Assembly: GCF_964204645.1 (NCBI RefSeq)
Contig: NC_134029.1
Coordinates: 18,718,950-18,782,949 of the forward strand
DNA length: 64,000 bases
Source: Tubulanus polymorphus
Taxonomy: Eukaryota > Animalia > Nemertea
Reading direction: 5' to 3'
Under the pieces are notes generated by a model. The model was given only the letters and a program-made list of their open reading frames with translations, searched no databases and was not told where the DNA came from. Positions 44,009-61,844 of this stretch are shown in pieces. The stretch's first letter is position 1. Every line of letters begins with the position of its first letter. A program made the translations under genes and the position numbers.

Positions 44009-44389
44009 AGTAATAGGGATAATAGGCTTTCATACCAAAGGTCGAAGGGTCGAGCTCGTAAAAAAATGAAAATAATAATTTACAGTTGAATTAGTCGCGC
44101 ACACTCCTAATTCAACTGTAAATTATTATTATTTTCATTTTTTTACTCACTCACCCCTTCAACCTTTGATACGAAAGCCTATTATCCCTATTACTCTTAA
44201 AATATTCACATAAATGAATAACATTTAAATCATTGAACTTCTAAAATCAATTTTAATAAAAAATATAGTATTAAAATGGAAGCAAATAAATACTACTGCC
44301 CAACATGTAAGATAAGTATAGATAAATCCCAAAAAGCAAGACACAATAAAACTATAACACATTTAGAGAATAAATTGAAACTAGAATAT
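44009..44389 (+). repeat. Left TIR (outer 187 bp self-complementary)
   Basis: Reverse complement of 60479-60859; one mismatch seen, near the inner edge (44381). Confidence 0.95.
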
Positions 44390-44536
44390 TTACAGTTATA
44401 TTCAGAACAGTTAACAAAAGGAAAGAAATTTATTGAATTATGGAATAATGATCCAAATAATGAACAATACGTTGAGGAATTTATTATCAAGGAATCGAAA
44501 GAACTTATCAAAGCAACGAAGAATGAAAAAGGATGA
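44276..44536 (+). CDS. 86-aa chimeric ORF: pPolB N-terminal zinc finger plus duplicated HNH-ORF tail
   Basis: First 38 aa identical to ORF 60592(-); LQLYSEQLTK..YVEEF.IK matches the end of ORF 44605-45279. Confidence 0.6.
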   Translation: MEANKYYCPTCKISIDKSQKARHNKTITHLENKLKLEYLQLYSEQLTKGKKFIELWNNDPNNEQYVEEFIIKESKELIKATKNEKG

Positions 44537-44604
44537 TGTTGGTCGAAGAAATAGAAGAGGATTATAAATTATTAACCAATTTAGTAAAAAAATACGTATA
44601 ATAA

Positions 44605-45279
44605 ATGGAACCAGAACAACCACAAACTATCAATATTACAAATAACACTGGCGTTATAAACATATATTACAAGAAATGTTCTAAATGTGAATTAGATAAA
44701 TCATTAACAGAATTTAGTAAGCGTAAGATTAGCAAAGATGGTTTTCAATATTGCTGTAAAACTTGTACTAAACTATATACCAAACAATACCGAGAAGATA
44801 ATAGAGAATCTTATAATGATTATATGACAGAATATATGAGAGAAAGATATCAAACAGATCTTAATTTTAGATTGAAACAATGTTTACGGTCTAGATTAAC
44901 ACAATTATTCAACAAAGAAACACATTCAGAAACATTATCTAATTTATTGGGTTGTTCAGATGAATTTCTCAAATCATGGATTATATTTCAATTCGATGAT
45001 AAAATGAATATAGATAATTATGGGGATTATTACCATATTGATCACGTGTTACCAATATCTAAATTTAACATGAATGATGAATACAATAAAAAACTTATTT
45101 GGAATTGGAAAAATTTAAGACCTTTAGAAAAGAAAGAAAATCAAACCAAATCTAATAAACTAGATTTACAGTTATATTCAGAACAGTTAACAAAAGCAAA
45201 GAAATTTATTGATCAATGGAATAATAATCCAAATAATGAACGATACGTTGAGGAATTTGATATCAAGGATCCGAAATGA
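44605..45279 (+). CDS. HNH-type endonuclease with N-terminal Cys4 zinc site
   Basis: CSKC..CKTC; NYGDYYHIDHVLPISKF..WNWKNLRPLEKKENQTKSNK. Confidence 0.8.
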   Translation: MEPEQPQTINITNNTGVINIYYKKCSKCELDKSLTEFSKRKISKDGFQYCCKTCTKLYTKQYREDNRESYNDYMTEYMRERYQTDLNFRLKQCLRSRLTQLFNKETHSETLSNLLGCSDEFLKSWIIFQFDDKMNIDNYGDYYHIDHVLPISKFNMNDEYNKKLIWNWKNLRPLEKKENQTKSNKLDLQLYSEQLTKAKKFIDQWNNNPNNERYVEEFDIKDPK

Positions 45280-45582
45280 CTTATCTGGACAGTTATAACT
45301 ACTGCTCCTAATAGATAAACAAAAGTAGTGAGATATCAAATCCTAATTTAAATAAAAAGTATTTAAAAAACAATAACTTCAACTAGCTATCGAATTCTAT
45401 TATATTTTTAATATTTTCTTTTCAAAAAGAGAATACTTTATATTTTGAATAGATCCGAATAGAAATTCTTTAAATTCAAATAGCTAGTATCAGTAGTCAA
45501 TACTAGAATTCTTTAGCTTTAACTAGCTAGTATCATTTTATAATACTTATAATACTATTCTTATTAAATTTCTCTAATATAA

Positions 45583-46185
45583 ATGTCAAAGAAATCTAAT
45601 AAGAATAGTATTGATATTGAAAAAACATTAGATGATTTAGGTATTAGTGATAATAAGGATACAGTTGTTTCTAATTCTATTCAAGTTAATAACAATATAG
45701 ATTATGAATACTATTTATATTGTAAGCATCATCTTGAATTATTAATTGCTGGCGGGAAATCTAAGGACTTCTTAGGAAAAATAATAACTTTTCAAGAACT
45801 AGACTCTATGAAACCCGATAAAGTAATAAAATATTTTAAGATTTATGAAGAAGCAAGATTAGCTAGAATAAATGATTCTATTTCAGATGGTATTGTCAAA
45901 TGTTATTCAAAATTATGTAACCAGTTAATACCAATTGATGATGAAAATAAATTATATAATGATTTGAAAAATGATTATTTAGTTATGACTGAATTACAAA
46001 AATGGGTTGGTTATGCTTCATTTCAATTAGGATCGGTTATGACATTGATTTCTACTGGAGTTATAACATTTTCGAACATCAAACCTATGGAATATAAATC
46101 AGGTAAGAACGAAACAGATGTACTACAACCAAACGTCGAAACAGAAAATGAATCAGAACAAAAATTAACTAAAATAAATGAGTGA
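45583..46185 (+). CDS. Polinton protein of unknown function (200 aa), hydrophobic C-proximal segment
   Basis: Long ORF in AT-rich DNA with TAAATG start. Confidence 0.7.
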   Translation: MSKKSNKNSIDIEKTLDDLGISDNKDTVVSNSIQVNNNIDYEYYLYCKHHLELLIAGGKSKDFLGKIITFQELDSMKPDKVIKYFKIYEEARLARINDSISDGIVKCYSKLCNQLIPIDDENKLYNDLKNDYLVMTELQKWVGYASFQLGSVMTLISTGVITFSNIKPMEYKSGKNETDVLQPNVETENESEQKLTKINE

Positions 46186-46525
46186 TGGAGTTAAGAAAAA
46201 GGCTAGATCAGAGAAACAAATTAAATGGGCAAGAGAATTAGGTAAAAGATCATCAGAATTAAAAAAAGCTAAGAAAAAGAAATTAACTGATATAAATGAA
46301 TCACCTGGTATTGATTCAAATAATAATCCATCTGATTCTTCTAATGTTGGAAGTAATAATAAATTATATATTACAATTGGGTTAATCACAATTATTATAT
46401 TATCCGGTGTAATATATAAATCAAAATTCAAATCTGATGATAAAGATGATTCCAATGATGATAAACCTATTATACCAGAAAATAAATCAAATGAAAATAA
46501 ATCTAAAATATTATTAATGGATTAA
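46178..46525 (+). CDS. Small basic single-TM protein (115 aa)
   Basis: Lys-rich N-terminus; TM LYITIGLITIIILSGVIY. Confidence 0.7.
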   Translation: MSDGVKKKARSEKQIKWARELGKRSSELKKAKKKKLTDINESPGIDSNNNPSDSSNVGSNNKLYITIGLITIIILSGVIYKSKFKSDDKDDSNDDKPIIPENKSNENKSKILLMD

Positions 46526-46531
46526 AATATA

Positions 46532-47617
46532 ATGAAAAAAGAACAATATTTAAGAGAGTTATATTATAACCCAGAAAGTGAAGTATCATATTCTAACGTT
46601 TCAGAATTATGGAATAAAATTAAATCTGATAATAGTGATATAAAATATGGTGAATTAAAATCATGGTTACAAAATCAACCCACATATCAAATTCATAAAA
46701 AGATGGATAAAAAATATTTAACAAGAAAAGTTATGGTTTCATATATTGACCAACAATGGCAAGCTGATTTAATTGACATGAAAAACTTAGAAGAATACAA
46801 TAAAGGATATTTTTGGATACTAAATGTTATAGACATATTCAGTAGATACGCATGGTCAATTCCAATCAAAAATAAAACTGGAATAGAAGTTACAAATTCT
46901 TTCAAATTAATATTTAAAGAAGTTATTCCAGATAAAATACAATTTGATGAAGGTAAGGAATTTTATAACAAACATTTTAAAAAACTATTAACTGATAACG
47001 ATGTAGAATATTTTTCAACACATTCAGATAAAAAAGCATCTGTTATAGAAAGATTTAATAAAACATTGAAAACTAGAATGTGGAAATATTTTACTGCTAA
47101 TGAAACATATAAATATATCGATGTGTTAGATGATTTAGTTAAAGGTTATAATAATTCTAAACATAGTTCTATAAATATGAAACCTATACAAGCTAGAAAA
47201 GAAGATAATTCAGAAATAGTTTGGAATAATTTATATGGCGCATTTGTTACACACGATTTTGGAGAACCTAAATTTAAAATAGGACAACATGTTAGAATAT
47301 CTAAATATCGAAAAACATTTTATAAAGGTTATACCCCTAATTTTACTGAAGAAATATTTAAAATTAAAAAGATAATATTAACTAAACCATTTGTTTATAA
47401 ACTAGAAGATCTAAAAGATGAAGAAATATTAGGTTATTTTTATGAACAAGAATTATCATTAGTACCAAATCCAGATGAAATAGAATACAAAATAGAAAAA
47501 GTATTGAAAACAAAAACTCTTAAAGGAAAAAAGTATTCTTTGGTGAAATATAAAGGATATGATGATAAATTTAATGAATGGATTTTATCTAGTAAAATTA
47601 AAAGAATAAATGAATAA
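46532..47617 (+). CDS. Retroviral-type (rve) DDE integrase with C-terminal chromodomain
   Basis: WQADLIDM, VIDIFSRYAW, IQFDEGKEF, SVIERFNKTLK, YNNSKHSSI; YKIEKVL..LVKYKGYDDKFNEWI. Confidence 0.95.
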   Translation: MKKEQYLRELYYNPESEVSYSNVSELWNKIKSDNSDIKYGELKSWLQNQPTYQIHKKMDKKYLTRKVMVSYIDQQWQADLIDMKNLEEYNKGYFWILNVIDIFSRYAWSIPIKNKTGIEVTNSFKLIFKEVIPDKIQFDEGKEFYNKHFKKLLTDNDVEYFSTHSDKKASVIERFNKTLKTRMWKYFTANETYKYIDVLDDLVKGYNNSKHSSINMKPIQARKEDNSEIVWNNLYGAFVTHDFGEPKFKIGQHVRISKYRKTFYKGYTPNFTEEIFKIKKIILTKPFVYKLEDLKDEEILGYFYEQELSLVPNPDEIEYKIEKVLKTKTLKGKKYSLVKYKGYDDKFNEWILSSKIKRINE

Positions 47618-48221
47618 AGATTTATTTATATTTGAACCACATAATATGTTAGTTACTGGAGTTACAAATTGTGGTAAAACACACTTCATATTATATTTAT
47701 TAGAAACTATTTATAAGAATCATTTTGATAATATAATATTATTCTGTCCTACTTATGAAATGAATGAAACGTATAATAGAGATATAGTTAAGATAAAAAA
47801 GTTTATTATATTAGATCCTAAAACAGTAAAAGAAAATTTAGATAATTGTATTAAAATTGCATTAGATATTTATAAAGGATCAAATACATTATTCATTATA
47901 GATGATTGCGCAAATTTACATGATTCTAAAATTAGAGAAAGTGAGTTATGTTATTTAGCTTTCTCTGGTAGACATTTTGGGATAACAACATGGGTTTTAA
48001 ATCAGAAATATAATTCAATTGTTAAAGACTTTAGAGAGAATATAAGATTTCTAGTTTTATTTTATAATAAAGATAAAAAATCTATGCAACAATCATTGGA
48101 AGAAAATCAAATTATACCTACTGAATTACATGATGAATATATGAATAAATTAAAGAATAATAAAGGTTCCAAATTACTTATGAGATTACAATTTCCATAT
48201 GAATATAAATTTATAAAATAA
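47610..48221 (+). CDS. A32-like (FtsK-HerA) genome packaging ATPase
   Basis: Walker A GVTNCGKT, Walker B FIIDD, SGRH, WVLNQ, FRENI. Confidence 0.92.
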   Translation: MNKDLFIFEPHNMLVTGVTNCGKTHFILYLLETIYKNHFDNIILFCPTYEMNETYNRDIVKIKKFIILDPKTVKENLDNCIKIALDIYKGSNTLFIIDDCANLHDSKIRESELCYLAFSGRHFGITTWVLNQKYNSIVKDFRENIRFLVLFYNKDKKSMQQSLEENQIIPTELHDEYMNKLKNNKGSKLLMRLQFPYEYKFIK

Positions 48222-48237
48222 AATCCTAATTCAAAAT

Positions 48238-48759
48238 ATTATAGAATTCACTGTATACTAATGGATGAGTGGATGAATTGGATGAATTGGATGAATTGGA
48301 AGAGTGGATGAATGGAAGAGTGTAATAATATATAATTTACATATGTTTTTTATTTTTAAAACAGTAAGAGTTTGATTTGAAGATGTCATATAATAATAAA
48401 TATATTTTTATAAAATAATAAAATGACAGATAATAAATGTCATATAATAATAAATATATTTTTATAAAATGATAAATAATAAAATGATAAATAATAAAAT
48501 GATAAATAATAAATATATTTTTATAAAATAATAAATAATAAAATGATAAATAATAAATGTCATATAATAATAAATATATATTGTGTTAAATTTAATAAAG
48601 AATAAAAATATTATATTTATACTCATACTATTCTTCCAATTTATGTGTTAAAAAGTAAAATATATATATTATTACACTCTTCCACTCTTCCACTCTTCCA
48701 ATTCTTCCAACTCATCCAACTCATCCATTCATCCATCAATATACAGTGAATTCTATAAT
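48238..48759. repeat. Central inverted repeat enclosing AT-rich tandem repeats
   Basis: ATTATAGAATTCACTGTATA / TATACAGTGAATTCTATAAT, arrays of TGGAWGART 9-mers on both arms, internal ATAAAATGATAAATA repeats. Confidence 0.85.
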
Positions 48760-48763
48760 CTTT

Positions 48764-49828
48764 TTAATTTTCATTTTCATATTTTTCTTTAAGCTTATTG
48801 TATTCTAAATATATATCCCTTTGCATTTTCATTGGTATAATTCCTGAACGATTCCCGAGTTTATATTTCCTAAATGTTTCTCTTGAAAATATTTTTGGAA
48901 TATAATTTTCGATTTCAGTTTTAGATGGATGTTTATTTAAAAATTCTCTAAAATCATCATATTTAAGTTCAAATAAGTTCATTGCATAAGTAACATTTGG
49001 TTTAAAGTTATCTAACTTTTTCAATATGGTAACTATATCATTACTCAAGAAATAATCTATAAATGTTTTTCTATACCACCGATAATCTAATATATTCTTA
49101 TTATTAAATTTTGGATTTATAACTGTTGGATCTTCTATTACATTATCTGTACCAATATGTTTAATTGAGTATTTATGATTCAATTGTTTATCATATATTA
49201 CATATTCTTTACATTTTTCACACCAAGATTTAAATACTTTTATTGCATGGGCTGAATCATTTCCACTTTTTGTTTTTAATTTATAATGTTTTGCCCAATT
49301 AGCCTTTGTTATACATTCATTACAGAAAGCACAATAATTCTGATCCTCTTTACATTTATCTTTATATATATTGGCATATGTTTTTACTAATTGTAAAATA
49401 TGTTCATCTTTTTTGATGTGTAATAAATAATCATTATAATTATCAAAATCTTCTTCACAATACATACATCTGATGTTATCTTTTGGTTGAACATTTGATT
49501 TTTCTATTTTTGTTTCAATCTTATGTTCTATTTTAGGTTCAATATTATCGTCATTCGATGTAGAAGGTATAACATTATCTTCTATTTTAGGTTCAATATT
49601 ATCTTCTATTTTTATATCAATATTATCTTTTATTTTAGGTTCAATATTATCTTCTATTTTTATATCAATATTATTATTACGTTTAATTAAATATTCTTTG
49701 TATTGATTTAATTCATTTAATAAAAATGTTCCAATATATTCATTTATTCTTTTATAAGGTATTACATAATACAAATCATCATTGATTTCTTTATCAGCTT
49801 TGATTCTTTCATATACTTTACCTTCCAT
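48764..49828 (-). CDS. Multi zinc-finger protein with (IKIEDNIEPK)-type repeats (354 aa)
   Basis: CMYC..H..H, CAFC..H..H, CEKC..H..H. Confidence 0.75.
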   Translation of the reverse strand: MEGKVYERIKADKEINDDLYYVIPYKRINEYIGTFLLNELNQYKEYLIKRNNNIDIKIEDNIEPKIKDNIDIKIEDNIEPKIEDNVIPSTSNDDNIEPKIEHKIETKIEKSNVQPKDNIRCMYCEEDFDNYNDYLLHIKKDEHILQLVKTYANIYKDKCKEDQNYCAFCNECITKANWAKHYKLKTKSGNDSAHAIKVFKSWCEKCKEYVIYDKQLNHKYSIKHIGTDNVIEDPTVINPKFNNKNILDYRWYRKTFIDYFLSNDIVTILKKLDNFKPNVTYAMNLFELKYDDFREFLNKHPSKTEIENYIPKIFSRETFRKYKLGNRSGIIPMKMQRDIYLEYNKLKEKYENEN

Positions 49829-49860
49829 TTATTATATACATTTTTATTAAAGTTAAAATT

Positions 49861-51108
49861 CTAATACATAACACTATCTAATTGTGAATTTACAATATTT
49901 AATTGCGCGTCAGATATAATATAAATGTGCATTTTAAAATTTTTGATTCCCTTTTTCTTTGTCATGAATAATTGTATTCCATCTTTAGTGTTCTGTAGTT
50001 TTTTCCCAGAACCATGTAATAAGTTATCTTCAGTTGTTCTAAAATCTAACCATAATGCATATTTATTACCGGTATAATAATCAATTTGATTAATGTTACA
50101 ATTTTCAAATGATTTTACTTTTTCATTCATAAAATGTTTTTTAATTTCTACCCATTGATCTATCATTCTCATTCCTTGACAAAATATTTTATTCGCTATA
50201 CCTTCAATAGTTATTTCTACTTTTGTTATTTCAGGATTATAATAATTGTCAACATTTATTGCGCCATTAGTATACGTTCCAATAGTAAAAAATATTAATA
50301 TGCCTTTAATAGATCTTCTAGGAAAGTTAATATTCTCATTTATTATTTCATCATTTGCATTAATAGTTACAGTTTTAAATTTATCAATATAATCATATAA
50401 TAATGAAAACCCTTGATTGTATTGAGTTTGAATTATACTTGAAATATTTTCATCAGTTACTGTATCATATTCTAAACATATATTCGATAATTTATAACTC
50501 ATATCTTTATTAACGCTAGATAATACAATTTCATTTACAGGAGCAAATGTTATCTCAAATATAATATCTTCTTGAATTGCGTATTTATATAAAGGTGCAT
50601 TATTATTTATCAATTCAAAGTCTAATGGAATTTTATATTTGCTTCCATATATACTTTTTATCAATTTATCTACATCATTTGTTAATATTGCGCTATTAGC
50701 TTCTGATCTTAATTTATTTTGGTTTTCTGATTGGATGCCTTGAAATATCATATTATTTCTATTTTCTTTAGTTAACCATAAATCTTTATAATGCATAAAT
50801 AAATTATAATCATCTAATGAGAAAACTGTTTCTGGACCAATCTTTATTGTTAACTTTTTAATCAAATATCTCCCAACATTATCAACGACATAATTATTAT
50901 TATTACCGATTACTTTTATATCAGCTGATAAATAAATACTATTTGGAACATAAAAAGTATTTTGTGTTAATCTAGGAATTCTAACGTATAAAGTTTCATC
51001 GGGATTAATATTTGAAGGGTTATGAGTAATTATATGATGTGATCTTTCTGCTTTAATAGCGTTAGATATTCTAGAAATCTTCGAAGGACTTATATAAATC
51101 CCACTCAT
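49861..51108 (-). CDS. Major capsid protein, predicted double jelly-roll (415 aa)
   Basis: Size, beta-rich pattern and motifs HNPSNINPDETLYVRIP, NVGRYLIKKLTIKIG, YKIPLDF, YKLSNICLEYD, ALWLDFRT..LHGSG recalled from invertebrate Polinton MCPs. Confidence 0.75.
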   Translation of the reverse strand: MSGIYISPSKISRISNAIKAERSHHIITHNPSNINPDETLYVRIPRLTQNTFYVPNSIYLSADIKVIGNNNNYVVDNVGRYLIKKLTIKIGPETVFSLDDYNLFMHYKDLWLTKENRNNMIFQGIQSENQNKLRSEANSAILTNDVDKLIKSIYGSKYKIPLDFELINNNAPLYKYAIQEDIIFEITFAPVNEIVLSSVNKDMSYKLSNICLEYDTVTDENISSIIQTQYNQGFSLLYDYIDKFKTVTINANDEIINENINFPRRSIKGILIFFTIGTYTNGAINVDNYYNPEITKVEITIEGIANKIFCQGMRMIDQWVEIKKHFMNEKVKSFENCNINQIDYYTGNKYALWLDFRTTEDNLLHGSGKKLQNTKDGIQLFMTKKKGIKNFKMHIYIISDAQLNIVNSQLDSVMY

Positions 51109-51129
51109 TTATTTAACAAAAAAAATTAA

Positions 51130-52587
51130 TTATTTATTTTTTATCATGTTTACTAAACCAAAAATAATAGCACTTACAACCGTAATTAAAAATAAAATAA
51201 TATGTTCAGCAGCAAAGTTAATAATGTTTCCTGCAGATTTCAATATAAAACCAACAATTGAAGCAATAACTCCTGGCAATGCTGCAGCAGATTTTTTAGA
51301 TAGTTCCCATAAATATTTTGCTAATTTCTTTAAACCATCTTTAACTTTATCTTGTATAGAATTATTGCCTGGAGGTTTATCTGGTTTATTTGGAGTGGGA
51401 GTAGGAGTAGATTTCAAAGCATTTGATATAGCTAAACCTATTGTTGTAAATACCATAGTTACAGCTGTTAGAATTGAAAGAATTGTTATTCCTTCAAACT
51501 TAAATAATAATTTTATTCTATCTTTTAGTGATATGTCAGAATTTGGTTTTAGTATTAACTCTTTAACAACAACTTTTAATCTATTAATACAATAATCATA
51601 TGATTTTAATAATAATTTCATTTTTTCTTTCTGAAATTCTATGTTATATTTTAAATCATCAATTTCTTTTTCTAAATATGCATTTCTTTTTTTAAATTCA
51701 ATTTCTTCAATAACTTTAAATTCTCTATCTAATTTTAATTGTTCTAATTCTTTTCTGGTGTCAAATAATTTATTTTCTAAAGGTTTAATTTTATTATATC
51801 TAATATGTTTTTCGCGAGCAATTTTATCGGCTTCATTTCGTATACCTATTATTTCTCTAATTGTTTTTTTAGAAAACATACTTAAAGCTTCTATTTCTTG
51901 ATCTGTTGCATCAAGTAATCCATTCGGTAAAAGTTTTTCAGTTTGAACTTCAGTGTTTGATTTAAGTTTACTAGTTTTGGAAGTTATATTCTGTTCAGAA
52001 GTTGTTTCTATTTCCGATTTCTTTTTGATTATTTTAAATAAGTCATTAATTCTTTGTTTAAATACTATTATATAATTATTTATTTCTTCTTGTGTTACAT
52101 CAGTTATAACATCATTATTGATTTTCTTAATTCTATATGGTTCTAACTTAAGCAAAGTTGATTTCGCTAATATTTTAGTTAGTATTGTCGTTTGATTAGT
52201 GATATCAATATAATAATCAAAGGACAAATGATAATAATATTCACCATCTAAAAACTTTAAATCTTGTGCTAAAAGTCCGGCGCCTTCGGCATTTATATTA
52301 TATTCAGATTTTTCAAAATCATATTGAATCTTACTTAAAAATCTAATATTTTCTAAATTTTTTATTTCTAAATCTGGGTCTAAATTTTCAGGATTTATTC
52401 TCGATCTAGTTCTTCTATCAAATTCATCTGTTGATGGGACTTTATAACCTCTATCTGCTAAATTAGAATTATATGCTGATTCATTATTATCATTAAAACT
52501 TGTTTCACTTAAATCAGGTGGTTGTTCTTCAGTTATGCTGGGTTTATCAAAAGTATCCATTCCAATATTTTCTACACCTTCTGCCAT
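51130..52587 (-). CDS. Coiled-coil protein with several C-terminal hydrophobic helices (485 aa)
   Basis: Heptad region ~aa 250-345; hydrophobic segments ITILSILTAVTMVFTTIGLAI, AAALPGVIASIVGFIL, IILFLITVVSAIIFGLV. Confidence 0.8.
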   Translation of the reverse strand: MAEGVENIGMDTFDKPSITEEQPPDLSETSFNDNNESAYNSNLADRGYKVPSTDEFDRRTRSRINPENLDPDLEIKNLENIRFLSKIQYDFEKSEYNINAEGAGLLAQDLKFLDGEYYYHLSFDYYIDITNQTTILTKILAKSTLLKLEPYRIKKINNDVITDVTQEEINNYIIVFKQRINDLFKIIKKKSEIETTSEQNITSKTSKLKSNTEVQTEKLLPNGLLDATDQEIEALSMFSKKTIREIIGIRNEADKIAREKHIRYNKIKPLENKLFDTRKELEQLKLDREFKVIEEIEFKKRNAYLEKEIDDLKYNIEFQKEKMKLLLKSYDYCINRLKVVVKELILKPNSDISLKDRIKLLFKFEGITILSILTAVTMVFTTIGLAISNALKSTPTPTPNKPDKPPGNNSIQDKVKDGLKKLAKYLWELSKKSAAALPGVIASIVGFILKSAGNIINFAAEHIILFLITVVSAIIFGLVNMIKNK

Positions 52588-52603
52588 TTACATAATAAAA
52601 AAA

Positions 52604-53905
52604 TTAAAATTTAAAATATAATATTCCTCCGATTACAATTCCTATACAAGTTATAGCTAATTTAGTATTTTCATGGGATTTATTATCATCATTTAGTTTA
52701 ATTATATCATGTTGAATTTTATCAGTTTTAATATTTTCTGATGTATTGTAATCTTTTATTTTAGAATCATTAACCAATTTAATATTATTAGTTTTAGTTT
52801 CTGTTGATTGAATATGTTTTTTATTTTTTTCACCTTCCATTAATTTTGGAGCAGTAATAATCTTTTTATTTATATCATTTAATCCAAATGAATTATTTAT
52901 TGTTGCAGTTTTAATTAGATTATTATAACCAATTATATTTCCCATCTTTAATACTAAATCATTAGAAATAATTAATAGATTAGGGCCTATACAATAATTA
53001 AGTCTTACATGAGATTTATCTAAATAATTTTGATATCTAATAATGTTTTCTGGAATCGATCTATTTTTATCATTATGAATTGAATCTTCAAATAAAACTT
53101 TAAATTGTTTTTGTGTATCGAATGATGTATTCAAATTTCCAATTATCGGTGATCTTGTTTCAACTTGTGATCCTAAAATACATATCAAATAAGTTCTAAT
53201 AGATTGATTTATTCTTTGTATTCCAGCTTTAGTAAAACCTTCACTATTTTCTAAAATGAAATTAACCCAACCATTATTATTATCAATTTTATAATTATGA
53301 TAAGCTCCAATTCTATGCATATAATCAATTCTTTTTATTTCATACTGTTCACCAACACCTTGCAATTTACCATGCGCTCTAAAATCGGAATTAATATTTA
53401 TATTAAATTCATTACATATTTTATAAAACTTGGATATATTAATATTATTATCTAATTCTTTAAAATATTTAGACCCGGGTAAAGGACATTCTAATTCATT
53501 TAATATTATTCTGATTTGAAAATATGTGTGAAATCTAAATATTGTGTGAATTAATTTTAAATCAGAATACTTCAAATTTTTATCTAAGTTATTTAAATGA
53601 TCATTCCAACTTATTCCACATCCTGTTGTTGCACAATAAATAGCAAAATCTAATTGGTTCTGCCAATACTTCATATTAGATTTTACTTTATATTTATGAT
53701 ATTCATCTCGAGTAAAAGTAACTTCATATGTATTAAATATATTTTCCATTTTAGAAATAAAAAACTGTGATTCATTAACATAAATTTCTAAATTAGTTAA
53801 TGAATTTAAAACTATATTTTTATATGTAATATTTTTCTTAAAATCTATTGCCGGAATATTATATTTAATTGATTTATTATATTGGAAAGCTTTTGGAAAC
53901 CCCAT
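52604..53905 (-). CDS. Polinton protein of unknown function with C-terminal TM anchor (433 aa)
   Basis: WQNQLDFAIYCATTGCG, FRFHTYFQIR; terminal LAITCIGIVIGGILYF. Confidence 0.8.
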   Translation of the reverse strand: MGFPKAFQYNKSIKYNIPAIDFKKNITYKNIVLNSLTNLEIYVNESQFFISKMENIFNTYEVTFTRDEYHKYKVKSNMKYWQNQLDFAIYCATTGCGISWNDHLNNLDKNLKYSDLKLIHTIFRFHTYFQIRIILNELECPLPGSKYFKELDNNINISKFYKICNEFNININSDFRAHGKLQGVGEQYEIKRIDYMHRIGAYHNYKIDNNNGWVNFILENSEGFTKAGIQRINQSIRTYLICILGSQVETRSPIIGNLNTSFDTQKQFKVLFEDSIHNDKNRSIPENIIRYQNYLDKSHVRLNYCIGPNLLIISNDLVLKMGNIIGYNNLIKTATINNSFGLNDINKKIITAPKLMEGEKNKKHIQSTETKTNNIKLVNDSKIKDYNTSENIKTDKIQHDIIKLNDDNKSHENTKLAITCIGIVIGGILYFKF

Positions 53906-53921
53906 TTATATAATTAAAAAA

Positions 53922-54356
53922 TTAATAATTAACTAATTCTTTTAATAATTTATCTTGTTCTTCAACTGTTATATGACCATTTAAACTTATTATATAATCT
54001 AGTGTGTTCTTTAATTTATTTATTTCTTTTATATTAGATTTTATTTTTTCTTTATTACTTTTTATATTTAATTTTGAACTTATACCAGTTAAAACACTTG
54101 AACTTAATCCTAACACACCAATTGATATAGCTAAAGGTGTTAATGGACTGAATATTGCTAGAAATGTTATTACAGAACTAATTGTAACCGAACCACTTAT
54201 AATCAAATAATATATAATTTTACTTTTTAAATATTTTTTCTTTTTTATCTTTAAGTCACTTTCAAATTCTAATATTTGTTTTTCTAAATATGTTTTTAAT
54301 TTAGTTTTATTTATATCATGAGGAATAATATCAATACTATCAACTTTATCTTCCAT
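53922..54356 (-). CDS. Two-TM small protein (144 aa)
   Basis: Hydrophobic hairpin ~aa 48-95 flanked by charged helices. Confidence 0.75.
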   Translation of the reverse strand: MEDKVDSIDIIPHDINKTKLKTYLEKQILEFESDLKIKKKKYLKSKIIYYLIISGSVTISSVITFLAIFSPLTPLAISIGVLGLSSSVLTGISSKLNIKSNKEKIKSNIKEINKLKNTLDYIISLNGHITVEEQDKLLKELVNY

Positions 54357-54375
54357 TTATTTAGAATAAAAATTA

Positions 54376-54798
54376 CTAATTAGTAAATTTATAAGCAACA
54401 AATATAACAATAACAGTTCCACCTAAAATCCATATTATTTCATATTTCTGTTGTTCTTTACTTGGGGTATAATAATCTGATAATTTAGGTTTGTATAGAT
54501 GTAATTTTTCTTTATTGGTTACCGCGTTATATAAACTCATAGCATCATCAACTGATTGAAAATCTCTATGTGAAATCTTCTGATCATATAATTCTTTATT
54601 GATGTAATCCATATAGTTTTGTCTCTTTTCTCTATATTCTTCTGCAGCTTTATTGTATTTCTCTAACGCTAAGTTATGTCTTCTTTGTTCTCCTAATGAA
54701 CTATTTTTATCAATATGTTTAAATAAATAACCGCCACCAGTAAATGCTAAAGCGTTAACAATTGCTGATCCTATAATAGTTATAATTGCAGAAGCCAT
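54376..54798 (-). CDS. Membrane protein with N- and C-terminal hydrophobic helices (140 aa)
   Basis: MASAIITIIGSAIVNALAFTGGGYLF; IIWILGGTVIVIFVAY. Confidence 0.78.
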   Translation of the reverse strand: MASAIITIIGSAIVNALAFTGGGYLFKHIDKNSSLGEQRRHNLALEKYNKAAEEYREKRQNYMDYINKELYDQKISHRDFQSVDDAMSLYNAVTNKEKLHLYKPKLSDYYTPSKEQQKYEIIWILGGTVIVIFVAYKFTN

Positions 54799-54823
54799 TT
54801 ATTTAGCAAAAAAAATTATGCAT

Positions 54824-55045
54824 TTATATGGGAGGAATATATTTTTGTTTTTCCAAATAATCAATAGTTAAATTAGATAAAGTAACTGCTAATGTTAACT
54901 TTAAAATATCATTGATATCAAATCTATCAACATTAACACTTCCCATTTTGAATACTTTTTTTAATACCATTGAATAACCAACAGTTCCAACTGATAGTAA
55001 TGCGCCATTATATAATCCAGTTATTATCCACTTATTATCACTCAT
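54824..55045 (-). CDS. Small hydrophobic protein (73 aa)
   Basis: T7-N6-TAAATG start and tight packing with neighbours. Confidence 0.65.
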   Translation of the reverse strand: MSDNKWIITGLYNGALLSVGTVGYSMVLKKVFKMGSVNVDRFDINDILKLTLAVTLSNLTIDYLEKQKYIPPI

Positions 55046-55393
55046 TTATTTATCAAAAAAATTACTATATTCAAAATATTTAGTTATCTTAGTGATTATT
55101 AATTCAACATTTATTTTATTACTAGTTTTATGATTATCATATATTTTGGATAATATGTTTTTAATATCATCGATGATAAAATCTTCATCTAATTCATAAA
55201 ATCTTAAAGATTCGGTAATCTTTTCTATATTAAAAGTTTCTTTATCAATTGTTGTTTCATACTCAAATGTTGTTTCATTAGAAAATGCAATATTTTTGAT
55301 ATGTGTTATTACATCATAAATGTTAAATTTCATTTCTTTCTCACGTTTAAAATCAAACCCAAAACATATACTCGGTCCAACAGTTATATTCAT
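55046..55393 (-). CDS. Hypothetical protein (115 aa)
   Basis: TAAATG start; its TAA stop abuts the next ATG. Confidence 0.65.
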   Translation of the reverse strand: MNITVGPSICFGFDFKREKEMKFNIYDVITHIKNIAFSNETTFEYETTIDKETFNIEKITESLRFYELDEDFIIDDIKNILSKIYDNHKTSNKINVELIITKITKYFEYSNFFDK

Positions 55394-55409
55394 TTATATA
55401 GGTGAAAAA

Positions 55410-56168
55410 TTACTCTTTACATCTTATAACTAATTCATAAATTACAGGAAAGTTATTCAAATCAATTAAGTATCCATTATGATTTCTTATTTCTAATTTA
55501 AAATTATTAAATTGAGGAATACAAGGTTTGAAATCACATTCAGCTAAATTATAATTTATTTGCGTTCCAAATTGTTTAACATTTTTTAATGGTAAAATAT
55601 TTAATATACTAGAATTACATGTTGTATCTTTAGTTGCTTCGAATGTTTTTGTTGGGTCAATTAAATTGCAATAAATATAAAAATGTGTAAAAGGTATTAT
55701 ATTTGAATTACCGTCTACGTTTCCTGTAACAGTTTGTGGTTTAATTCCTAACAGTTTAGCTAAAGGTTTCCTTACCATAAATGCATGTTTGTTTTCATCA
55801 TCTAACTTTATTTTAATTTTATTAGAACTATCACTTTTTATAAATCTAATTGAAAATTTATCTTCACTTTTAAGTTTTAATCGTGCTCTCCGATTAATTT
55901 CTTGTGCTAATGTATCTAAATTATATAATCCTGGTTTTAAAATTAGTTGAAACCATTTATTTATATTTCTAATATGAATTAAAAAGTCTCTATGATCAAA
56001 ACTTTTATCCGATATATTATGAAAAGAATTACATAAACTTATATTTACTAATTTTAAATCAACACAATTCTTGAATTCTCTATCTAATTGTACTAATAAA
56101 TTATGTGATTTATAATTTGTAAGTTTTCTAGAATCAACAAATATTCTGTATTCTTTTAATTCTACCAT
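55410..56168 (-). CDS. Minor capsid (penton) protein, single jelly-roll
   Basis: IFVDS, LKPGLYN, FYIYCNLID, ILNILPL, FKLEIRNHNGYLIDLNNFPVIYELVIR. Confidence 0.8.
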   Translation of the reverse strand: MVELKEYRIFVDSRKLTNYKSHNLLVQLDREFKNCVDLKLVNISLCNSFHNISDKSFDHRDFLIHIRNINKWFQLILKPGLYNLDTLAQEINRRARLKLKSEDKFSIRFIKSDSSNKIKIKLDDENKHAFMVRKPLAKLLGIKPQTVTGNVDGNSNIIPFTHFYIYCNLIDPTKTFEATKDTTCNSSILNILPLKNVKQFGTQINYNLAECDFKPCIPQFNNFKLEIRNHNGYLIDLNNFPVIYELVIRCKE

Positions 56169-56185
56169 TTATTTTACATATTTTC

Positions 56186-56527
56186 TTATTCGAAATCTAT
56201 TTCATGGTGCCCTTTTTCATTCTTACCTTTGTATACGAAATAGAAATCTCCAGAACATAATTCTTCTAGATCTTCACTTGATAATCTATGAAATCTATCT
56301 GGTAAATAAGTTCTGAATTTATATGTATTTCCTTTTAATCCTTCATATTCTAAATGAATTACTAATTTATCTCCATATTTATTAGTAATTGTTTCAATGT
56401 TAGTAATTAAATATTTCTTGTGAATTGTTAATTCTGTTAACTTTTTAAATTTATAATCTACAGATTTGACGCTTGAAGTATCTTTAATTCTATCTAAGAA
56501 TTCATTGTGTACTTGTTTACTCTCCAT
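56186..56527 (-). CDS. Small protein next to pPolB, possible OB-fold ssDNA-binding protein (113 aa)
   Basis: FKKLTEL..KY.I..TNKYG..L..YLPDRF pattern; function is inference. Confidence 0.5.
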   Translation of the reverse strand: MESKQVHNEFLDRIKDTSSVKSVDYKFKKLTELTIHKKYLITNIETITNKYGDKLVIHLEYEGLKGNTYKFRTYLPDRFHRLSSEDLEELCSGDFYFVYKGKNEKGHHEIDFE

Positions 56528-56555
56528 TTATTATACAAATTTTTATTGAAATTGA

Positions 56556-59500
56556 TTAACACGTTAGAATCCTTTTCATGATTTCATTTTCTTTTGTTTC
56601 TTCTCTTTTGAATTTTATATATTCATCTAAATTGCAACCATAGGCGACTGTGTGGATTCCATCATCTAAAATATATCTTTTATCATCAAATGGGTTTAGA
56701 CTTATCTTTTCAATTTCTTCAATATACATTTCATGATCTTCAGATCTTAAACATTTCATTTTATGTTTTCTAACTTCTTCATTAAATATACAATTGATGT
56801 AATCTTTGAAATGAATATTCTTTTCTACTACACTTTTAGTAATTCCTTTTAACTTTTTAGCTTCATGTTCTTTAGTTTTATATGAATACATTTTAGATCT
56901 AATACCAATAAACTCTATCATTTCTTCACCACCTAATTCATCCTTAAACTTCCCTGGAACTTTTTTATTATCATTGCTAAACAATTCATGATTTTTTGGA
57001 TAATTACTAAAATCAAAATGGTGTTTTAATGTTTTTAAATCATCTGTTATGTTATCAGTTTTTATCTTTAATATATAACTGTCAGTATCAAAGTATAGAA
57101 TTTCTATGTGTTTTTCTCCAAAATGGGGTTGTAATATGTTATAATAAAATTGATACATTAATAACTTTGAAATTTCTAGAACTGATGCACCAACATAAAT
57201 AGGTTTATTGAACTTCATAGAAGTTCTTTTCATTTTAACTGCTGCTAAATTTTCATCAAATATTCTGTTACCTATAAACTTAGGATATGATTGTAAATGC
57301 CTAATTCTTTTACCATTACTAACTAACTCAATATCATTTCTATTTCTAATATTTTCACAAGTCTTACCATAGAATGCATTATTCATTAGTTTGAAGAAAT
57401 CTTTTTCAAAATCAGTTTTAGATTTAGTTCTCTGTGTAGTATTAAAATCTATATATTTTTCTAACCATTTAGATTGACTGAATGAAATATATCTATGTAC
57501 TTTTTTTAGAATCATTCCTTGATTCAAATAAAACTTCAACATTCTATAATGCACAACGTAATTATATTTATCTTCTTGAGTTACCATTAACTTTTCAGTA
57601 TGAATATGATTATCGGGTTTAATTCTTTTTTGATAATTTGATAATTCTTCATGTTTAACAGTTTTATGTTCGGGACAATATGCTAGATTTCTAGATTTGA
57701 ATTTAATATTTTCAGGGTATTCTAAATCTACAACAAAGAAGTAACCAGTATCTGAATCATCTGCAATATCTAGAATTCTTTTCTTCCAATCAAATTTATC
57801 ATTATTTTCATTCTGTAAAACTTCAGTTATTTCAAACATCCCATAAGGTTGTGGTTCCATCATTGCCCAACCATAAAGATTATTTGCATCTATGTATAAT
57901 AATTTATATCCAGGATTATCATTTACATTGAAATATCTATCACCCAATACACCTGAAACACCTCCTCTTATAGATTTTTCAAATAATAGTAATTGATCTA
58001 TATTTGTTAACAAATCCATTTTTATATCTGTAAATTTTAATCCACAATCCCATGTTAATCCTGGTGATGAATAACAATGACAAGGATCAATGTTAAAATA
58101 TTTTAGGTTTACATCTCTAAACCTTTCGAATATATCGGTTAATAATAATACATCTGATTTTAAATATAAATCTACTAATTGACCATGATTTTCTATTTTG
58201 AAATGATTCCAAATATTCAATGTTCTATTATAAACTTCATCTTTAACATATTCATTTTTTAATTCATCATAGAATTGTTCTTTTAATAATTCAGTTATAT
58301 TAAAATCATTATGATTTTTATAGAAAGAATATGGAATCGCTCCTTTATATCTCATTAATTTAAAATCATCATAATTTGGGTAATATTCTTTTAATATCTT
58401 TAATTCATCATCAACTAATGATTTTGATAGATTATCTAATGAACTTGCTAGAAATCTATAAGAATCTATAAATCTTAGACAACCAAATTGGAATGATATA
58501 TAATTCTCAGATGTTTTAGCTAACATTCTAAATTTATAAGTTGGTATTTTATCTTTTGATTTATTTGAATTTAATATTTCTATTTCATTATTAATTTCTT
58601 CTATTTTATGACATAACTGTTTGATAAATAAATGCGCGTCATATCCTGATAGATTATGAAATATAATGGGGACAAAATTTACTTTTTTGGCTTGCAAATT
58701 ACAATTCTCATGTGCAGCGCCTCTAAACTTTCCATTCAAATGATCATGGTCTCTTACTTTTTTATCTTTATAATTAAATATCTTTTCACAATAATAACAT
58801 TTATCTGCAAACTCAAATTCTTCTTTATCTTCTTCTGTCATTATAATTTCTTTATTTGTATTCAATAATTTACTAAATCTTATTTCATATTCAATTAATA
58901 AGTCACAAAAATAATAACATTTTCATTTCTATACTGATAATATTCACTTTCAATTAGTTCTGGATAATCAGATTTAATATATAACCCGAAAGCAGCAGCT
59001 GATTGATGAATCTTTTTAATAGTATTTGTTTTTGGTGGGTCTTCTGAATAATCACTTTCATTAGAATTTAATTTCTTTCTTTTATAATATATATCTTTTC
59101 TATCTTTATCTGTTAATTCTTTATTTAATGATTCAAAATCTCCATATATTACAAATGGTACTTTATTTTTGTAATCATATTTTTTGAATTCTAATATTTT
59201 ATCCTTTTCATTTGGTAAAACTAATTTACAATAATCATGATTATCACATAGTTGTTTATGATTTAATAATGTACTTTCATTACTAAATCTATGTAAACAT
59301 TTTCTACATAGATATATTTTATTATGGTGATCACTTTCTGTTCTAAAAAATAAATCTATTTGTTTAATCCACATATAATGATTCTCATAATATAATATAT
59401 CTATAACATCGTTTGAATCATAATCTTTTGATAGGTATAAAGGTTCTAATGTATAATGTTTAATATTATTTCCTTTTGTATTTGGTAATTTAATTAAATC

Positions 59501-60592
59501 AAATACATTTATTTTAAGATTATTATCTCTTTCTATTTTGGGGATGTTTTTAATTCTAACAGGATACTTATCTATCTTATAATTATTTTCAAATGGTTTA
59601 TAATGAGTTAATCTAAAACTATGTGTAATATCTTCTGTTGGATGTAAACAACTTATTATAGCCCATAGAAAACATTTATCATCTTCATTTTGTATATTTA
59701 TTACAGCATTAGTTTTAAATGGTAGTTTAATATAACTTGTTCCATTTATACTATCATCTTTATAATATGATAAATTATTTTCATCAATTGGTTTTGATTT
59801 AGTTAACTTATTATATTTTGTGTTATAAACATGTAAAGTCATAAATATTATCTCATCAAATATTAAACCAGATCCTTCAAAATATTTTTCTTCTATTTTA
59901 GTTTTTATTTCATTATAACATTTTTCTAATTTATCATCTAAATGTTGTTTAGATATAATATGTTGTGAATGAGAATTTATATTATATATTGGTTTATCTT
60001 CAGATTTTATAAACTTTACTTTAGAAGATATACTAATTTTAGGATATTCAACATCTGTAATTATTTTTATTATTTCTTTCATATTTTCTAAATGTTTTTT
60101 ATTTTCTTCTAATGTTTTACCTTTATGAAATTTAAACTCGATAGCTGCTGGACCAATATCACTTTTAAATGCTTCGGTTATCTCTATATCTTTTTTATTA
60201 TCTAATGAATTAATATAATTTCTTACATCTTCCATGTATGGTCTTTTATTGTTTAATTTATTTTTTATTCTTTTAATTGTCTTCTGTTTCTTATCGTTAT
60301 CATTATCAAAATAATCTTCACCTAAAATATCATTATTCTTATTTCTAATATGACTTATAGATTTTAAATGTTCTTTATAATATCTTTTATCACTGAATGA
60401 TTGATTACATGTATCACATTTGTATGTTTCTTTTTCATTCTTTAATTCTTCTAATTTAGTTTCTAATATATCATCTTTATATTCTAATTTCAATTTATTC
60501 TCTAAATGTGTTATAGTTTTATTGTGTCTTGCTTTTTGGGATTTATCTATACTTATCTTACATGTTGGGCAGTAGTATTTATTTGCTTCCAT
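56556..60592 (-). CDS. Protein-primed family B DNA polymerase, one 1-nt frameshift at ~58907-58911 (~1345 aa if repaired)
   Basis: Zinc fingers; INIQNEDDKCFLWAI..ENHYMWI (vOTU-like); ExoI YGDFES; EndoVII-like VRDHDHLNGKFRGAAHENCN; ExoII FHNLSGYD; YLKSDV; YIDANNLYGWAM; KLMNNAFYGK; YFDTDS. Confidence 0.95.
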
Positions 60593-60859
60593 TTTAATAC
60601 TATATTTTTTATTAAAATTGATTTTAGAAGTTCAATGATTTAAATGTTATTCATTTATGTGAATATTTTAAGAGTAATAGGGATAATAGGCTTTCGTATC
60701 AAAGGTTGAAGGGGTGAGTGAGTAAAAAAATGAAAATAATAATAATTTACAGTTGAATTAGGAGTGTGCGCGACTAATTCAACTGTAAATTATTATTTTC
60801 ATTTTTTTACGAGCTCGACCCTTCGACCTTTGGTATGAAAGCCTATTATCCCTATTACT
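60479..60859 (-). repeat. Right TIR (outer 187 bp self-complementary)
   Basis: Reverse complement of 44009-44389. Confidence 0.95.
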
Positions 60860-61844
60860 CATGTGGTCGACAATTTCTGGACCGGTTTCACTTTAGTTCG
60901 ACTATAGTCGACTAACTCCGAAAACCAAAGTACGCCCTGCAATCTGGAATGGTGTATCTTGAAAATCAATATGGTTCTTTCCTACATGATCCGACAACAT
61001 GCCGTGCAATTTAAAATTATTCCATCGACTGGTTCAGCCAGAATCTTGTATACAAGGATGTTAGTTGAACAGCTATTTAGAGAACAACGTCATCTTCAAC
61101 GTTGTACAGTAGGATTTTCTACCCTTTTGCCAGGTCAACTCCTGGTTATCCCAAAAATACCACATCAAATCTCATGTCATCATAGTGACCATCTAAACAA
61201 TAGCCTCTTTTAAATTTCATGCAATTGGTTGTAAATGTATAAGTTCTGACTTTGTGTGGTGCGGTTGCCATTTTGGAACAGATGTTTGTCGTCGCTGGAT
61301 TTGTACTATCGGCTTTTAGACAATAGGGTTGTGGCGGCCGTGTGTAACGTAGCAAATAAGGAAGTATAGATGTTCTGTAGCGCGGGGGGGTGGGGGGATG
61401 TCGGCCTATCACACGCGTATAGTTGTTCATCTTTTCCCGTATAACAATCCCGATGCTGATTGCGCGCTTCTCATTTTTAGCATATAGATTATTGTAAATG
61501 TCGCCTCTCAAGGGGAATCTATAACAATACGATGTAAGCTGATTACGAATACATCGCGCACAGCTGTAGTAAGCAGTATATTGAATATGGATCGAGAATT
61601 ATATATAATGTATGATATTAGTGTACCCTGATGGTCAAATATCTGAAATAAAACTGGAAATTGCCGGGGCTTGATCCAGGGCCATAAAGAGAGAAGTACA
61701 ATATCTACAGGGTCCCTACAACTTCTTGATTGACTTTTTACCCAAAAATGGCAGTTATTTGCAAAAAGGGCACTTTTCAAAAATAATGAATACATCTGTG
61801 ATTTGTAAGCCTATTTGGGCTGGGCATCCACTTTTTATTATATG

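Follow-up and report, generated by a model that had tools for sequence, protein, structure and literature searches.

A TAAATG start-site element shared by a clade of Maverick elements resembles poxvirus post-replicative promoters

A 64,000-nucleotide (nt) stretch of the genome of the nemertean Tubulanus polymorphus (contig NC_134029.1, positions 18,718,950 to 18,782,949), called the window here, contains a Polinton/Maverick element at positions 44009-60859. We assign it to this group because it combines terminal inverted repeats (TIRs), a target-site duplication (TSD), a protein-primed PolB, an rve integrase, an A32-like packaging ATPase, and a double-jelly-roll capsid. Nearly all of its genes start in the hexamer TAAATG, with a T at a fixed distance upstream. 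Among relatives, the motif and its geometry are a property of one clade, they are used by genes arranged head to head, and neither an RNA polymerase nor an initiation factor is detectable in the element. We modestly favor the explanation that it is a virophage-like Polinton transcribed by the RNA polymerase (RNAP) of a pox-type helper.

A sequence-only reading of this DNA had described a T-run, a short spacer, and TAAATG ahead of seven consecutive genes on the minus strand, which we call the capsid block. Those sites were borne out letter for letter: T8-GTTAAA, T7-ATTATG, T6-AATTATA, T5-ATTCTAAA, T8-GCTAAA, T7-GATAAA, and T5-CACCTATA, each followed by TAAATG. The pattern T5-N6-9-TAAATG occurs eight times in the window, seven of them at these starts; dinucleotide shuffles of the element alone gave a mean of 0.97, and 0/300 reached 8. 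The same reading had counted 14 of 17 open reading frames (ORFs) starting in TAAATG. The count was correct as made, but comparison with relatives, in which PolB is a single ORF, shows that the 761-aa PolB ORF begins at an internal Met located past a frame break. With this Met (58841) and a TIR duplicate (44276) left out, 14 of the 16 true starts are TAAATG; among internal ATGs out of frame, 26 of 298 are (binomial, ~1e-13). The enrichment that the reading had proposed to check holds against both internal ATGs and shuffled sequence. The two other starts are TATAATG (integrase) and TAAAATG (PolB); in the related loci L001 and L003 the integrase start is TAAATG, unlike that of the window.

Two features go beyond the earlier description. 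A T stands at -12 from the A of the ATG at all 14 TAAATG starts and at the PolB start. In addition, the T-run that surrounds this position at the seven capsid-block starts is replaced by an A-run ending in that T at the 224-aa, ATPase, 354-aa, 252-aa, 113-aa, and PolB genes, so that the seven TAAATG genes outside the block mostly have an A-run rather than a T-run. The gaps ahead of the capsid-block genes are 21, 16, 16, 19, 25, 0, and 16 nt, as the reported range of 0-25 bp had it. The start element of the 73-aa gene does lie inside the upstream coding sequence (CDS), and there the TAA doubles as the upstream stop codon, the one such case among the 14 TAAATG starts.

A 46-capsid alignment retrieved relatives of the element (the best 80 of 172 metagenome loci, with 2 genome loci). 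We built a tree of the major capsid protein (MCP) from 47 loci with near-full capsids, less L061 and L073, which have internal stops, plus the window and eight proteins without DNA (quick IQ-TREE, with Shimodaira-Hasegawa-like approximate likelihood ratio test, SH-aLRT, as support). One clade (SH-aLRT 99) united the window with 12 loci, and the capsid gene starts in TAAATG in 13/13. Outside it, TAAATG is at the capsid start in 1/33 loci, L041, which has a long branch and an unsure placement. The clade spans 20-44% GC; TAAATG is retained at 40-44% GC (L007 and L008) and is missing from the capsid start of outsiders at 26-30% GC (L017, L020, and L023). These results support a start-site element that is under selection and specific to a lineage, and not an artefact of AT content.

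The same holds for whole gene sets. From the window and 13 clade loci we listed 74 starts by hand, leaving out L002, L013, and L014 (near-duplicates or broken), 5'-open ORFs, and internal starts that follow a frame break. TAAATG opens 68 of the 74, compared with 62 of 1001 internal out-of-frame ATGs. T is found at -12 in 88% and A at -18 in 74%, G is at +4 in 50/74, and an automatic ORF set of the clade gave T at -12 in 58/63. A T-rich box lies ahead of 39/68 start TAAATG hexamers versus 12/126 non-start ones (p 1e-12, among loci that are kin and not independent). Which genes have T-run and which have A-run starts is consistent across the window, L001, L003, and L005.

Several relatives contain head-to-head gene pairs in which both genes start in TAAATG, with ATG-to-ATG distances of 19 (L001), 24 (L012), 28 (L009, L010, and L041), and 30 nt (L011); such pairs often center on a common A-run/T-run junction. 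Genes placed 19-30 nt apart in this way do not follow a gene that must terminate, and the space between them is too short for leaders made by RNA polymerase II (Pol II). This geometry implies that initiation would take place at or beside the ATG.

TAAATG is also present at 12/14 starts in L041 and at 7/7 in L157, with varied preceding bases. Given these two loci, the grammar may have had more than one origin or been transferred repeatedly. L157 is a PolB/integrase element, and its ATPase is unmatched by that of the window. Distant AT-rich Polintons (L020, L023, L057, L059, L080, and L081) often use TAAAA(A)ATG starts, which could reflect a Kozak context rich in A or else an initiator related to TAAATG. 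Two Polinton capsid contigs, L081 and L082, are found inside bacterial metagenome-assembled genomes, where they are probably binning contamination.

Published accounts of poxvirus promoters, cited here from the available portions of each paper, describe three classes. In the late promoter TAAAT(G) overlaps the start codon, and the 10th nt upstream is a conserved T surrounded by further Ts; the intermediate promoter, mainly of genes for DNA-binding and packaging proteins, has TAAA plus an AT-rich tract and then T; and the early promoter is A-rich interrupted by TG (PMC11980589), with the consensus AAAANTGAAAA (PMC5294985). Slippage on TAAAT yields 5' poly(A) leaders (PMC4542343; PMC6211774). 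The signals of one entomopoxvirus comprise TAAATG and TTTTTnT, and TTTTTNT is an early-stage signal (PMC3061580).

The late-promoter trait of TAAAT(G) overlapping the start codon is present at 14/16 window starts and 68/74 clade starts. The T ahead of TAAAT is at the 9th nt in 88% and at the 10th in 72% of clade starts, and the seven capsid-block sites have T at both. The A-run/T/TAAA(A)TG arrangement at six genes can be compared with the intermediate promoter, with a spacing that does not align exactly to the published text and a class that is lost in deeper relatives. An early-promoter-like AAAAAATGAAAA in the TIR palindrome, present on both of its arms, fits the early consensus; it is one repeat unit found post hoc, and it was matched in 4/2000 arm shuffles and 12/300 element shuffles. 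TTTTTNT is depleted on the coding strands of the clade, with 16 occurrences versus 52.9 expected from synonymous shuffles (observed/expected ratio, O/E, 0.30); the O/E is 0.77-0.78 in distant Polintons and 0.97 in the iridovirus-like contigs described below. Among T5 runs, the NT ending falls short (15/68, p 0.010), which is not the case for the mirror form or the distant groups.

That the element has no RNA polymerase of its own, as the earlier reading held, agrees with our scans and is a trait of mavirus-type virophages: no Pfam match to RNAP, TBP, TFIIB, or VLTF3 was obtained in 18/18 element ORFs at E 0.01, and NCBIfam gave no such transcription domain in 13 of the 18. VLTF3-like genes are known in Polintons (PMC11131425, available text) and occur in the motif-less L015 (6543-7052), L016, L030 (5082-5579), and L057 (385-933), whereas the VLTF3-like profile found nothing in the element or the motif clade. 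This difference is suggestive, but most distant Polintons lack both VLTF3 and the motif, and VLTF3 presence splits motif from non-motif elements only imperfectly.

If a pox-type helper transcribes the element, an A- or T-run ending in T(-12) plus TAAATG would be a post-replicative promoter for the RNA polymerase of that co-infecting virus. By analogy with vaccinia biology, initiation within TAAAT followed by slippage would produce a nontemplated 5' poly(A) leader. Such a leader would swap the poor T at -3 for A and, with G at +4, would give a good Kozak context with no templated untranslated region (UTR). The T-run form would mark a late class (the capsid block), and the A-run form an intermediate-like class (the ATPase, the single-stranded DNA-binding protein [SSB]-like gene, PolB, and accessory genes). 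Integrated copies would be silent, and transcription and packaging of free copies would be confined to cells that the helper has infected, a life cycle like that of mavirus with Cafeteria roenbergensis virus (CroV).

Several points weigh against this explanation. The start site, the poly(A) leader, the temporal classes, and the helper are all steps that we infer. The sequence-only reading held that these genes are built for a pox-type polymerase; a selected, lineage-specific element with vaccinia-late geometry stands, but a pox-type polymerase as its reader is only probable. TAAATG opens 50/129 ORFs in iridovirus-like contigs, so that the hexamer alone is not pox-specific and can serve other large DNA viruses, and the case for a pox over an iridovirus polymerase lies in finer features. 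The match to poxviruses would be one to published text descriptions and not to a like-for-like profile of poxvirus DNA, and the best-conserved T, at the 9th nt, is offset by one base from the published 10th. The late/intermediate-like split fails in deeper relatives, where the MCP start of L007 is of the A-run type, and the kinship of the loci makes our p-values overstate independence. Vaccinia late transcription does not respond to the early terminator TTTTTNT, and a purely late scheme would not predict that it is avoided; T and A homopolymer runs are also depleted generally in the clade. No pox RNAP subunits were found in any locus protein scanned, and a divergent factor could be hidden among the 115-, 200-, 354-, 433-, and 485-aa proteins. 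Finally, the proposed life cycle would require an integrated copy to reach a cytoplasmic factory; the host holds dozens or more nuclear copies, and the integrase must therefore act in the nucleus.

A wider proposal is tentative. This widespread canonical Maverick clade and at least one separate lineage could be integrating virophages of poxvirus-type viruses, carrying a miniature early/intermediate/late pox grammar; invertebrate copies would then be traces of poxviruses still to be discovered in hosts other than insects and vertebrates, and might also serve as an antiviral defense that infection induces.

Alternatively, the promoter might be read by a helper of another kind among large DNA viruses, an iridovirus or an uncharacterized Nucleocytoviricota lineage, which we consider unlikely. 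A nuclear phase would ease the reactivation of integrated copies, and iridoviruses start replication in the nucleus and encode RNAP subunits (PMC5294985, available text); iridovirid-like particles have been described in marine invertebrates (PMC5923455, available text). Deoxynucleoside kinase genes in two clade members, L003 (10340-10981, opening with a T-run and TAAATG) and L007 (2895-3377), also point this way. The L003 kinase has no named poxvirus or iridovirus relative among 38 matches, and L083, the only viral contig among these, has TAAATG at 1/15 starts listed. A scan of viral contigs for head-to-head TAAATG pairs (at least 120 loci scored, 8 read closely) found no poxvirus DNA among the loci inspected and yielded L084, a stretch of a 206-kb record. 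L084 and related loci encode Rpb1, an XPG nuclease, Erv1, MSV199, and DUF5757/5770/5772 proteins; we take them to be iridovirus-like on the strength of these protein families, and the start and end grammar described next is that of loci L204-L233.

The TAAATG starts of these contigs, a sample consisting of a single related group, differ from those of the Polinton clade in several respects. AATAAATG is found at 48/50 of them versus 33/68 in the clade (p 7e-9) and 1/12 in L041; their AATAAA floats 0-6 nt from the ATG, overlapping it in 48/129 ORFs and often lying 1-6 nt further upstream. T at -12 is present in 22/50 versus 58/63 (p 2e-8), and 3' hairpins with z below -3 follow 29/59 stops versus 2/51. 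The TTTTTNT ratios given above differ likewise (0.97 vs 0.30). The Polinton does not share the floating AATAAA and 3' hairpins of the iridovirus-like contigs, and, as far as these counts indicate, it departs from them toward the pox description on each feature. Its grammar fits the published poxvirus post-replicative promoters better than the iridovirus-like grammar. A paper title cited in PMC5923455 refers to hairpin-defined 3' ends of invertebrate iridovirus transcripts, and the available portions of the iridovirus literature consulted do not give AATAAA-ATG as a start motif. AATAAA at or just ahead of most ATGs, together with strong post-stop hairpins, was seen in L204, L205, L209, L215, L219, and related loci. 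Five more viral contigs (L176, L177, L179, L172, and L192) open head-to-head genes with TATAAATG or AATAAATG. As described in the available texts, neither the late promoter of African swine fever virus, with a TATA initiator (PMC7458399), nor that of CroV, TCTA (PMC8547959), matches the element.

The genes might instead be transcribed in the nucleus by host Pol II, steered by a divergent factor that the element itself or, in trans, a sister Polinton provides, with TAAATG as a binding box or initiator. The abundance of copies in the nucleus, the intact ends and the TSD, the VLTF3-like genes of related Polintons (L015, L016, L030, and L057), and a TATA box within TATAAATG at 23/68 starts would suit such a scheme. 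Pol II starts ~25-30 nt past a TATA box, however, so that a box abutting the ATG would place the start ~25-30 nt inside the ORF, and we rejected it as the TATA box of the gene's own start. The close divergent starts leave no space for UTRs, T at -3 is a poor context unless a leader replaces it, and TBP, TFIIB, and VLTF3 are undetected in the element, while the VLTF3-bearing L015, L030, and L057 lack the motif. We judge this scheme improbable.

Least probable is that TAAATG is a by-product of compact packing. It would then stem from a stop joined to the ATG, from an overlapping poly(A) signal (AATAAA preceded by a U-rich element), from an acceptor site for trans-splicing, or from AT bias. Gaps of 0-32 nt, AATAAATG at 33/68 starts, and 4/7 T-runs lying in TTTTTNT directly after the upstream stop would fit this, but head-to-head genes keep the motif with no upstream same-strand gene and so largely refute it, which excludes both stop-start coupling and an overlapping poly(A) signal. 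The TAA doubles as the stop of an upstream gene at only 1/74 starts, AG is found within the last 15 nt of only 10/74, which rejects a splice acceptor, and AT-rich outsiders lack a motif that GC-richer clade members retain. The O/E of sense-strand AATAAA, near 1 in the clade (1.03) and in distant groups (1.01 and 1.02) and 0.46 in four sister loci, does not discriminate between nuclear and cytoplasmic transcription.

Mavirus has an integrase and PolB and is not known to encode an RNA polymerase. Mavirus and type 4 endogenous mavirus-like elements (EMALEs) carry the CroV late promoter TCTA and are activated via helper-encoded factors (PMC8547959; bioRxiv 10.1101/2025.10.09.676808; available texts). 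The element would likewise be an integrated small double-stranded DNA virus whose genes carry a helper-type late promoter; it differs in having a Polinton capsid, a likely animal host rather than a protist, TAAATG fused to the start codon rather than TCTA, and a helper that is inferred rather than a known mimivirus-like one. Its sequence relatives are Polinton-type elements and the mavirus MCP ranks 43rd or lower in the capsid fold search; the element lies outside the virophage (Maveriviricetes) capsid lineage. MCP scans of viral contigs gave no relative. Entomopoxvirus-associated Polinton-like viruses (PLVs) have been proposed as poxvirus hyperparasites (Barth et al. 2024, PMC11296320) and are similarly Polinton-like elements linked to poxviruses. 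According to the available text, those PLVs are ~12 kb, have divergent capsids and a cysteine protease in all four, and lack a detectable integrase where PolB is present (PMC11296320), whereas our element is 16.85 kb and has rve and no protease match. Their link to poxviruses is co-sequencing from occlusion bodies, and that of the Maverick is promoter grammar; the words "promoter," "motif," "TAAAT," and "transcription" are absent from the main text of PMC11296320.

The element resembles vaccinia, as described in the available texts (PMC11980589, PMC4542343, PMC5294985, PMC3061580), in that TAAAT(G) covers the ATG, a T within a T-tract is conserved ~10 nt further up, and TTTTTNT is avoided; the A-run variant and the AAAANTGAAAA-like motif may be further parallels. 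Unlike vaccinia, it uses the motif at ~90% of starts, including the ATPase and often the integrase, has the conserved T 9th before TAAAT, and is known from sequence alone. The linear yeast elements pGKL1/2 also use an initiator, TAAAN, that gives 5' poly(A) leaders by slippage (PMC6211774, available text), a leader that here would be expected by analogy; an RNA polymerase and a capping enzyme are among their own genes, and their promoters include a conserved sequence further upstream, whereas the Polinton has a capsid and integrase and no detected polymerase. With adintoviruses (PMC8502044, available text) the element shares protein-primed PolB, an rve integrase with chromodomain, a packaging ATPase, a capsid, inverted repeats, and germline copies; unlike them, it has no detected cysteine protease. 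The word "promoter" is absent from the available texts of the adintovirus (PMC8502044) and coral polintovirus papers, and there is no promoter text in the available part of the egovirus preprint (bioRxiv 10.1101/2024.03.23.586382). A literature search of main texts, with subscription papers mostly outside it, found no report joining Polintons to TAAATG or pox-type promoters; the terms met once, in the entry for a paper on aphid small RNAs. Mavirus and CroV are an established case of a small integrated virus that shares promoters with its helper; pox-like grammar in a canonical Maverick, unreported in the texts searched, is a real feature whose helper class is probable but unproven.

Animal Polintons could be viruses in their own right, transposons, or parasites that depend on a helper, and experiments have had little to take hold of in deciding among these; a 25-nt element at nearly every gene makes helper dependence directly testable. 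If a pox-type polymerase does read these promoters, animals carry a mavirus-like proviral satellite, the sequence around its start codons would suffice to predict which class of helper a Polinton uses, and poxvirus-like viruses are to be expected in hosts with no known ones.

Table 1. Features of the Polinton/Maverick element and its start sites (window coordinates)
Feature	Position	Strand	Remark
Polinton/Maverick element	44009..60859	.	16,851 bp, 23% GC
Left TSD, CATGTG	44003..44008	+	6-bp direct repeat
Right TSD, CATGTG	60860..60865	+	6-bp direct repeat
Left TIR	44009..44389	+	381 bp
Right TIR	60479..60859	-	381 bp, 99% complementary to left TIR
Early-promoter-like AAAAAATGAAAA in TIR palindrome	44061..44072	+	fits AAAANTGAAAA
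Copies of AAAAAATGAAAA repeat unit	44132-44143 (-), 60725-60736 (+), 60796-60807 (-)		one repeat unit
A-run/T(-12)/TAAATG, 224-aa gene start	44583..44607	+	sequence
T-rich TAAATG, 200-aa gene start	45561..45585	+	sequence
TAAATG, left 115-aa gene start	46156..46180	+	sequence
rve integrase with chromodomain	46532..47617	+	PF00665 above cut-off
A-run/T(-12)/TAAATG, ATPase start, within integrase CDS	47588..47612	+	sequence
A32-like packaging ATPase	47610..48221	+	Pfam PF04665
A-run/T(-12)/TAAATG, 354-aa gene start	49826..49850	-	same type in L001 and L005
MCP, double jelly-roll, 415 aa	49861..51108	-	model pLDDT 85
T8-N6-TAAATG, MCP gene start	51106..51125	-	sequence
485-aa conserved Polinton protein, hydrophobic C-terminus	51130..52587	-	homologues in related elements
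T7-N6-TAAATG, 485-aa gene start	52585..52603	-	sequence
433-aa conserved Polinton protein	52604..53905	-	homologues in related elements
T6-N7-TAAATG, 433-aa gene start	53903..53921	-	sequence
144-aa protein	53922..54356	-	weak SLATT-like two-transmembrane match, below cut-off
T5-N8-TAAATG, 144-aa gene start	54354..54372	-	sequence
140-aa conserved Polinton protein	54376..54798	-	homologues in related elements
T8-N6-TAAATG, 140-aa gene start	54796..54815	-	sequence
73-aa conserved Polinton protein	54824..55045	-	homologues in related elements
T7-N6-TAAATG, 73-aa gene start, within upstream CDS; TAA is upstream stop	55043..55061	-	sequence
115-aa protein	55046..55393	-	single relative seen, L003, 66%
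T5-N8-TAAATG, 115-aa gene start	55391..55409	-	sequence
252-aa protein	55410..56168	-	family common to most related elements
A-run/T(-12)/TAAATG, 252-aa gene start	56166..56190	-	same type in L003
113-aa oligonucleotide-binding (OB)-fold, SSB-like protein	56186..56527	-	weak matches, including PRD1 P12 E 4e-3
A-run/T(-12)/TAAATG, 113-aa SSB-like gene start	56525..56549	-	sequence
Protein-primed PolB	56556..60592	-	Pfam PF03175, E 3e-15; two frames in this copy
A-run/T(-12)/TAAAATG, PolB start, within TIR; copy at 44254-44278	60590..60614	-	sequence

The fold search with the capsid matched capsid chains of Paramecium bursaria chlorella virus 1 (PBCV-1) and iridoviruses at E 5e-16, and Pfam Capsid_N was detected in 14/46 members of the capsid alignment. 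The 252-aa protein may be a minor capsid protein. The 115-aa protein of the capsid block had neither a homologue-search nor an atlas match beyond its L003 relative. The predicted fold of the 113-aa protein is an OB domain with weak SSB matches; sequence searches of the PDB with the 200-, 354-, and 113-aa proteins returned nothing at E 0.01. PolB breaks frame near 58,900 in this copy and is one ORF in L157 and L041. An adenain-like cysteine protease, which many but not all Polintons have, had no Pfam match in the 18 element ORFs, several of which have no assignment, or among the representative related-locus proteins scanned, and Rfam gave no family match in the window or 14 loci.

The element is a low-GC island in gene-poor host DNA of 40% GC. 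The outermost TIR letters, AGTAATAGGG, are identical at both ends, and the 6-bp length of the TSD is one that we take to be typical of Polinton/Maverick elements. The first 188 nt of each TIR (44009-44196 and 60672-60859) form a near-perfect palindrome (-65.6 kcal/mol, z -18.9), a candidate terminal hairpin or origin. In run X7, the depth of raw DNA reads is several hundred-fold over most of 49700-60900, compared with ~6 in the adjoining flank bin, and 1237 reads pass 60859 into dissimilar sequence (agreement 0.34), consistent with many insertion sites. Because of this depth and these departing reads, the data point to dozens or more copies in the host. T-run length at 51118, 54808, and 55402 differs by one base between host copies.

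Other features of the window are minor. Between the two convergent gene blocks, AT-rich tandem repeats at 48220-48777 are flanked by 115-nt inverted arms (89%), possibly a two-way terminator or an origin. The 354-aa gene contains a 24-nt tandem repeat (49493-49690). An 86-aa chimeric ORF at 44276-44536 joins a TIR copy of the PolB zinc-finger start to a duplicated tail of the 224-aa gene, whose 122-nt end is present at 44388-44509 and 45164-45285 with 90% identity. Outside the element, positions 13338-17686 hold a GC-rich retroelement, possibly DIRS-like, with overlapping ORFs and reverse transcriptase and RNase H domains.

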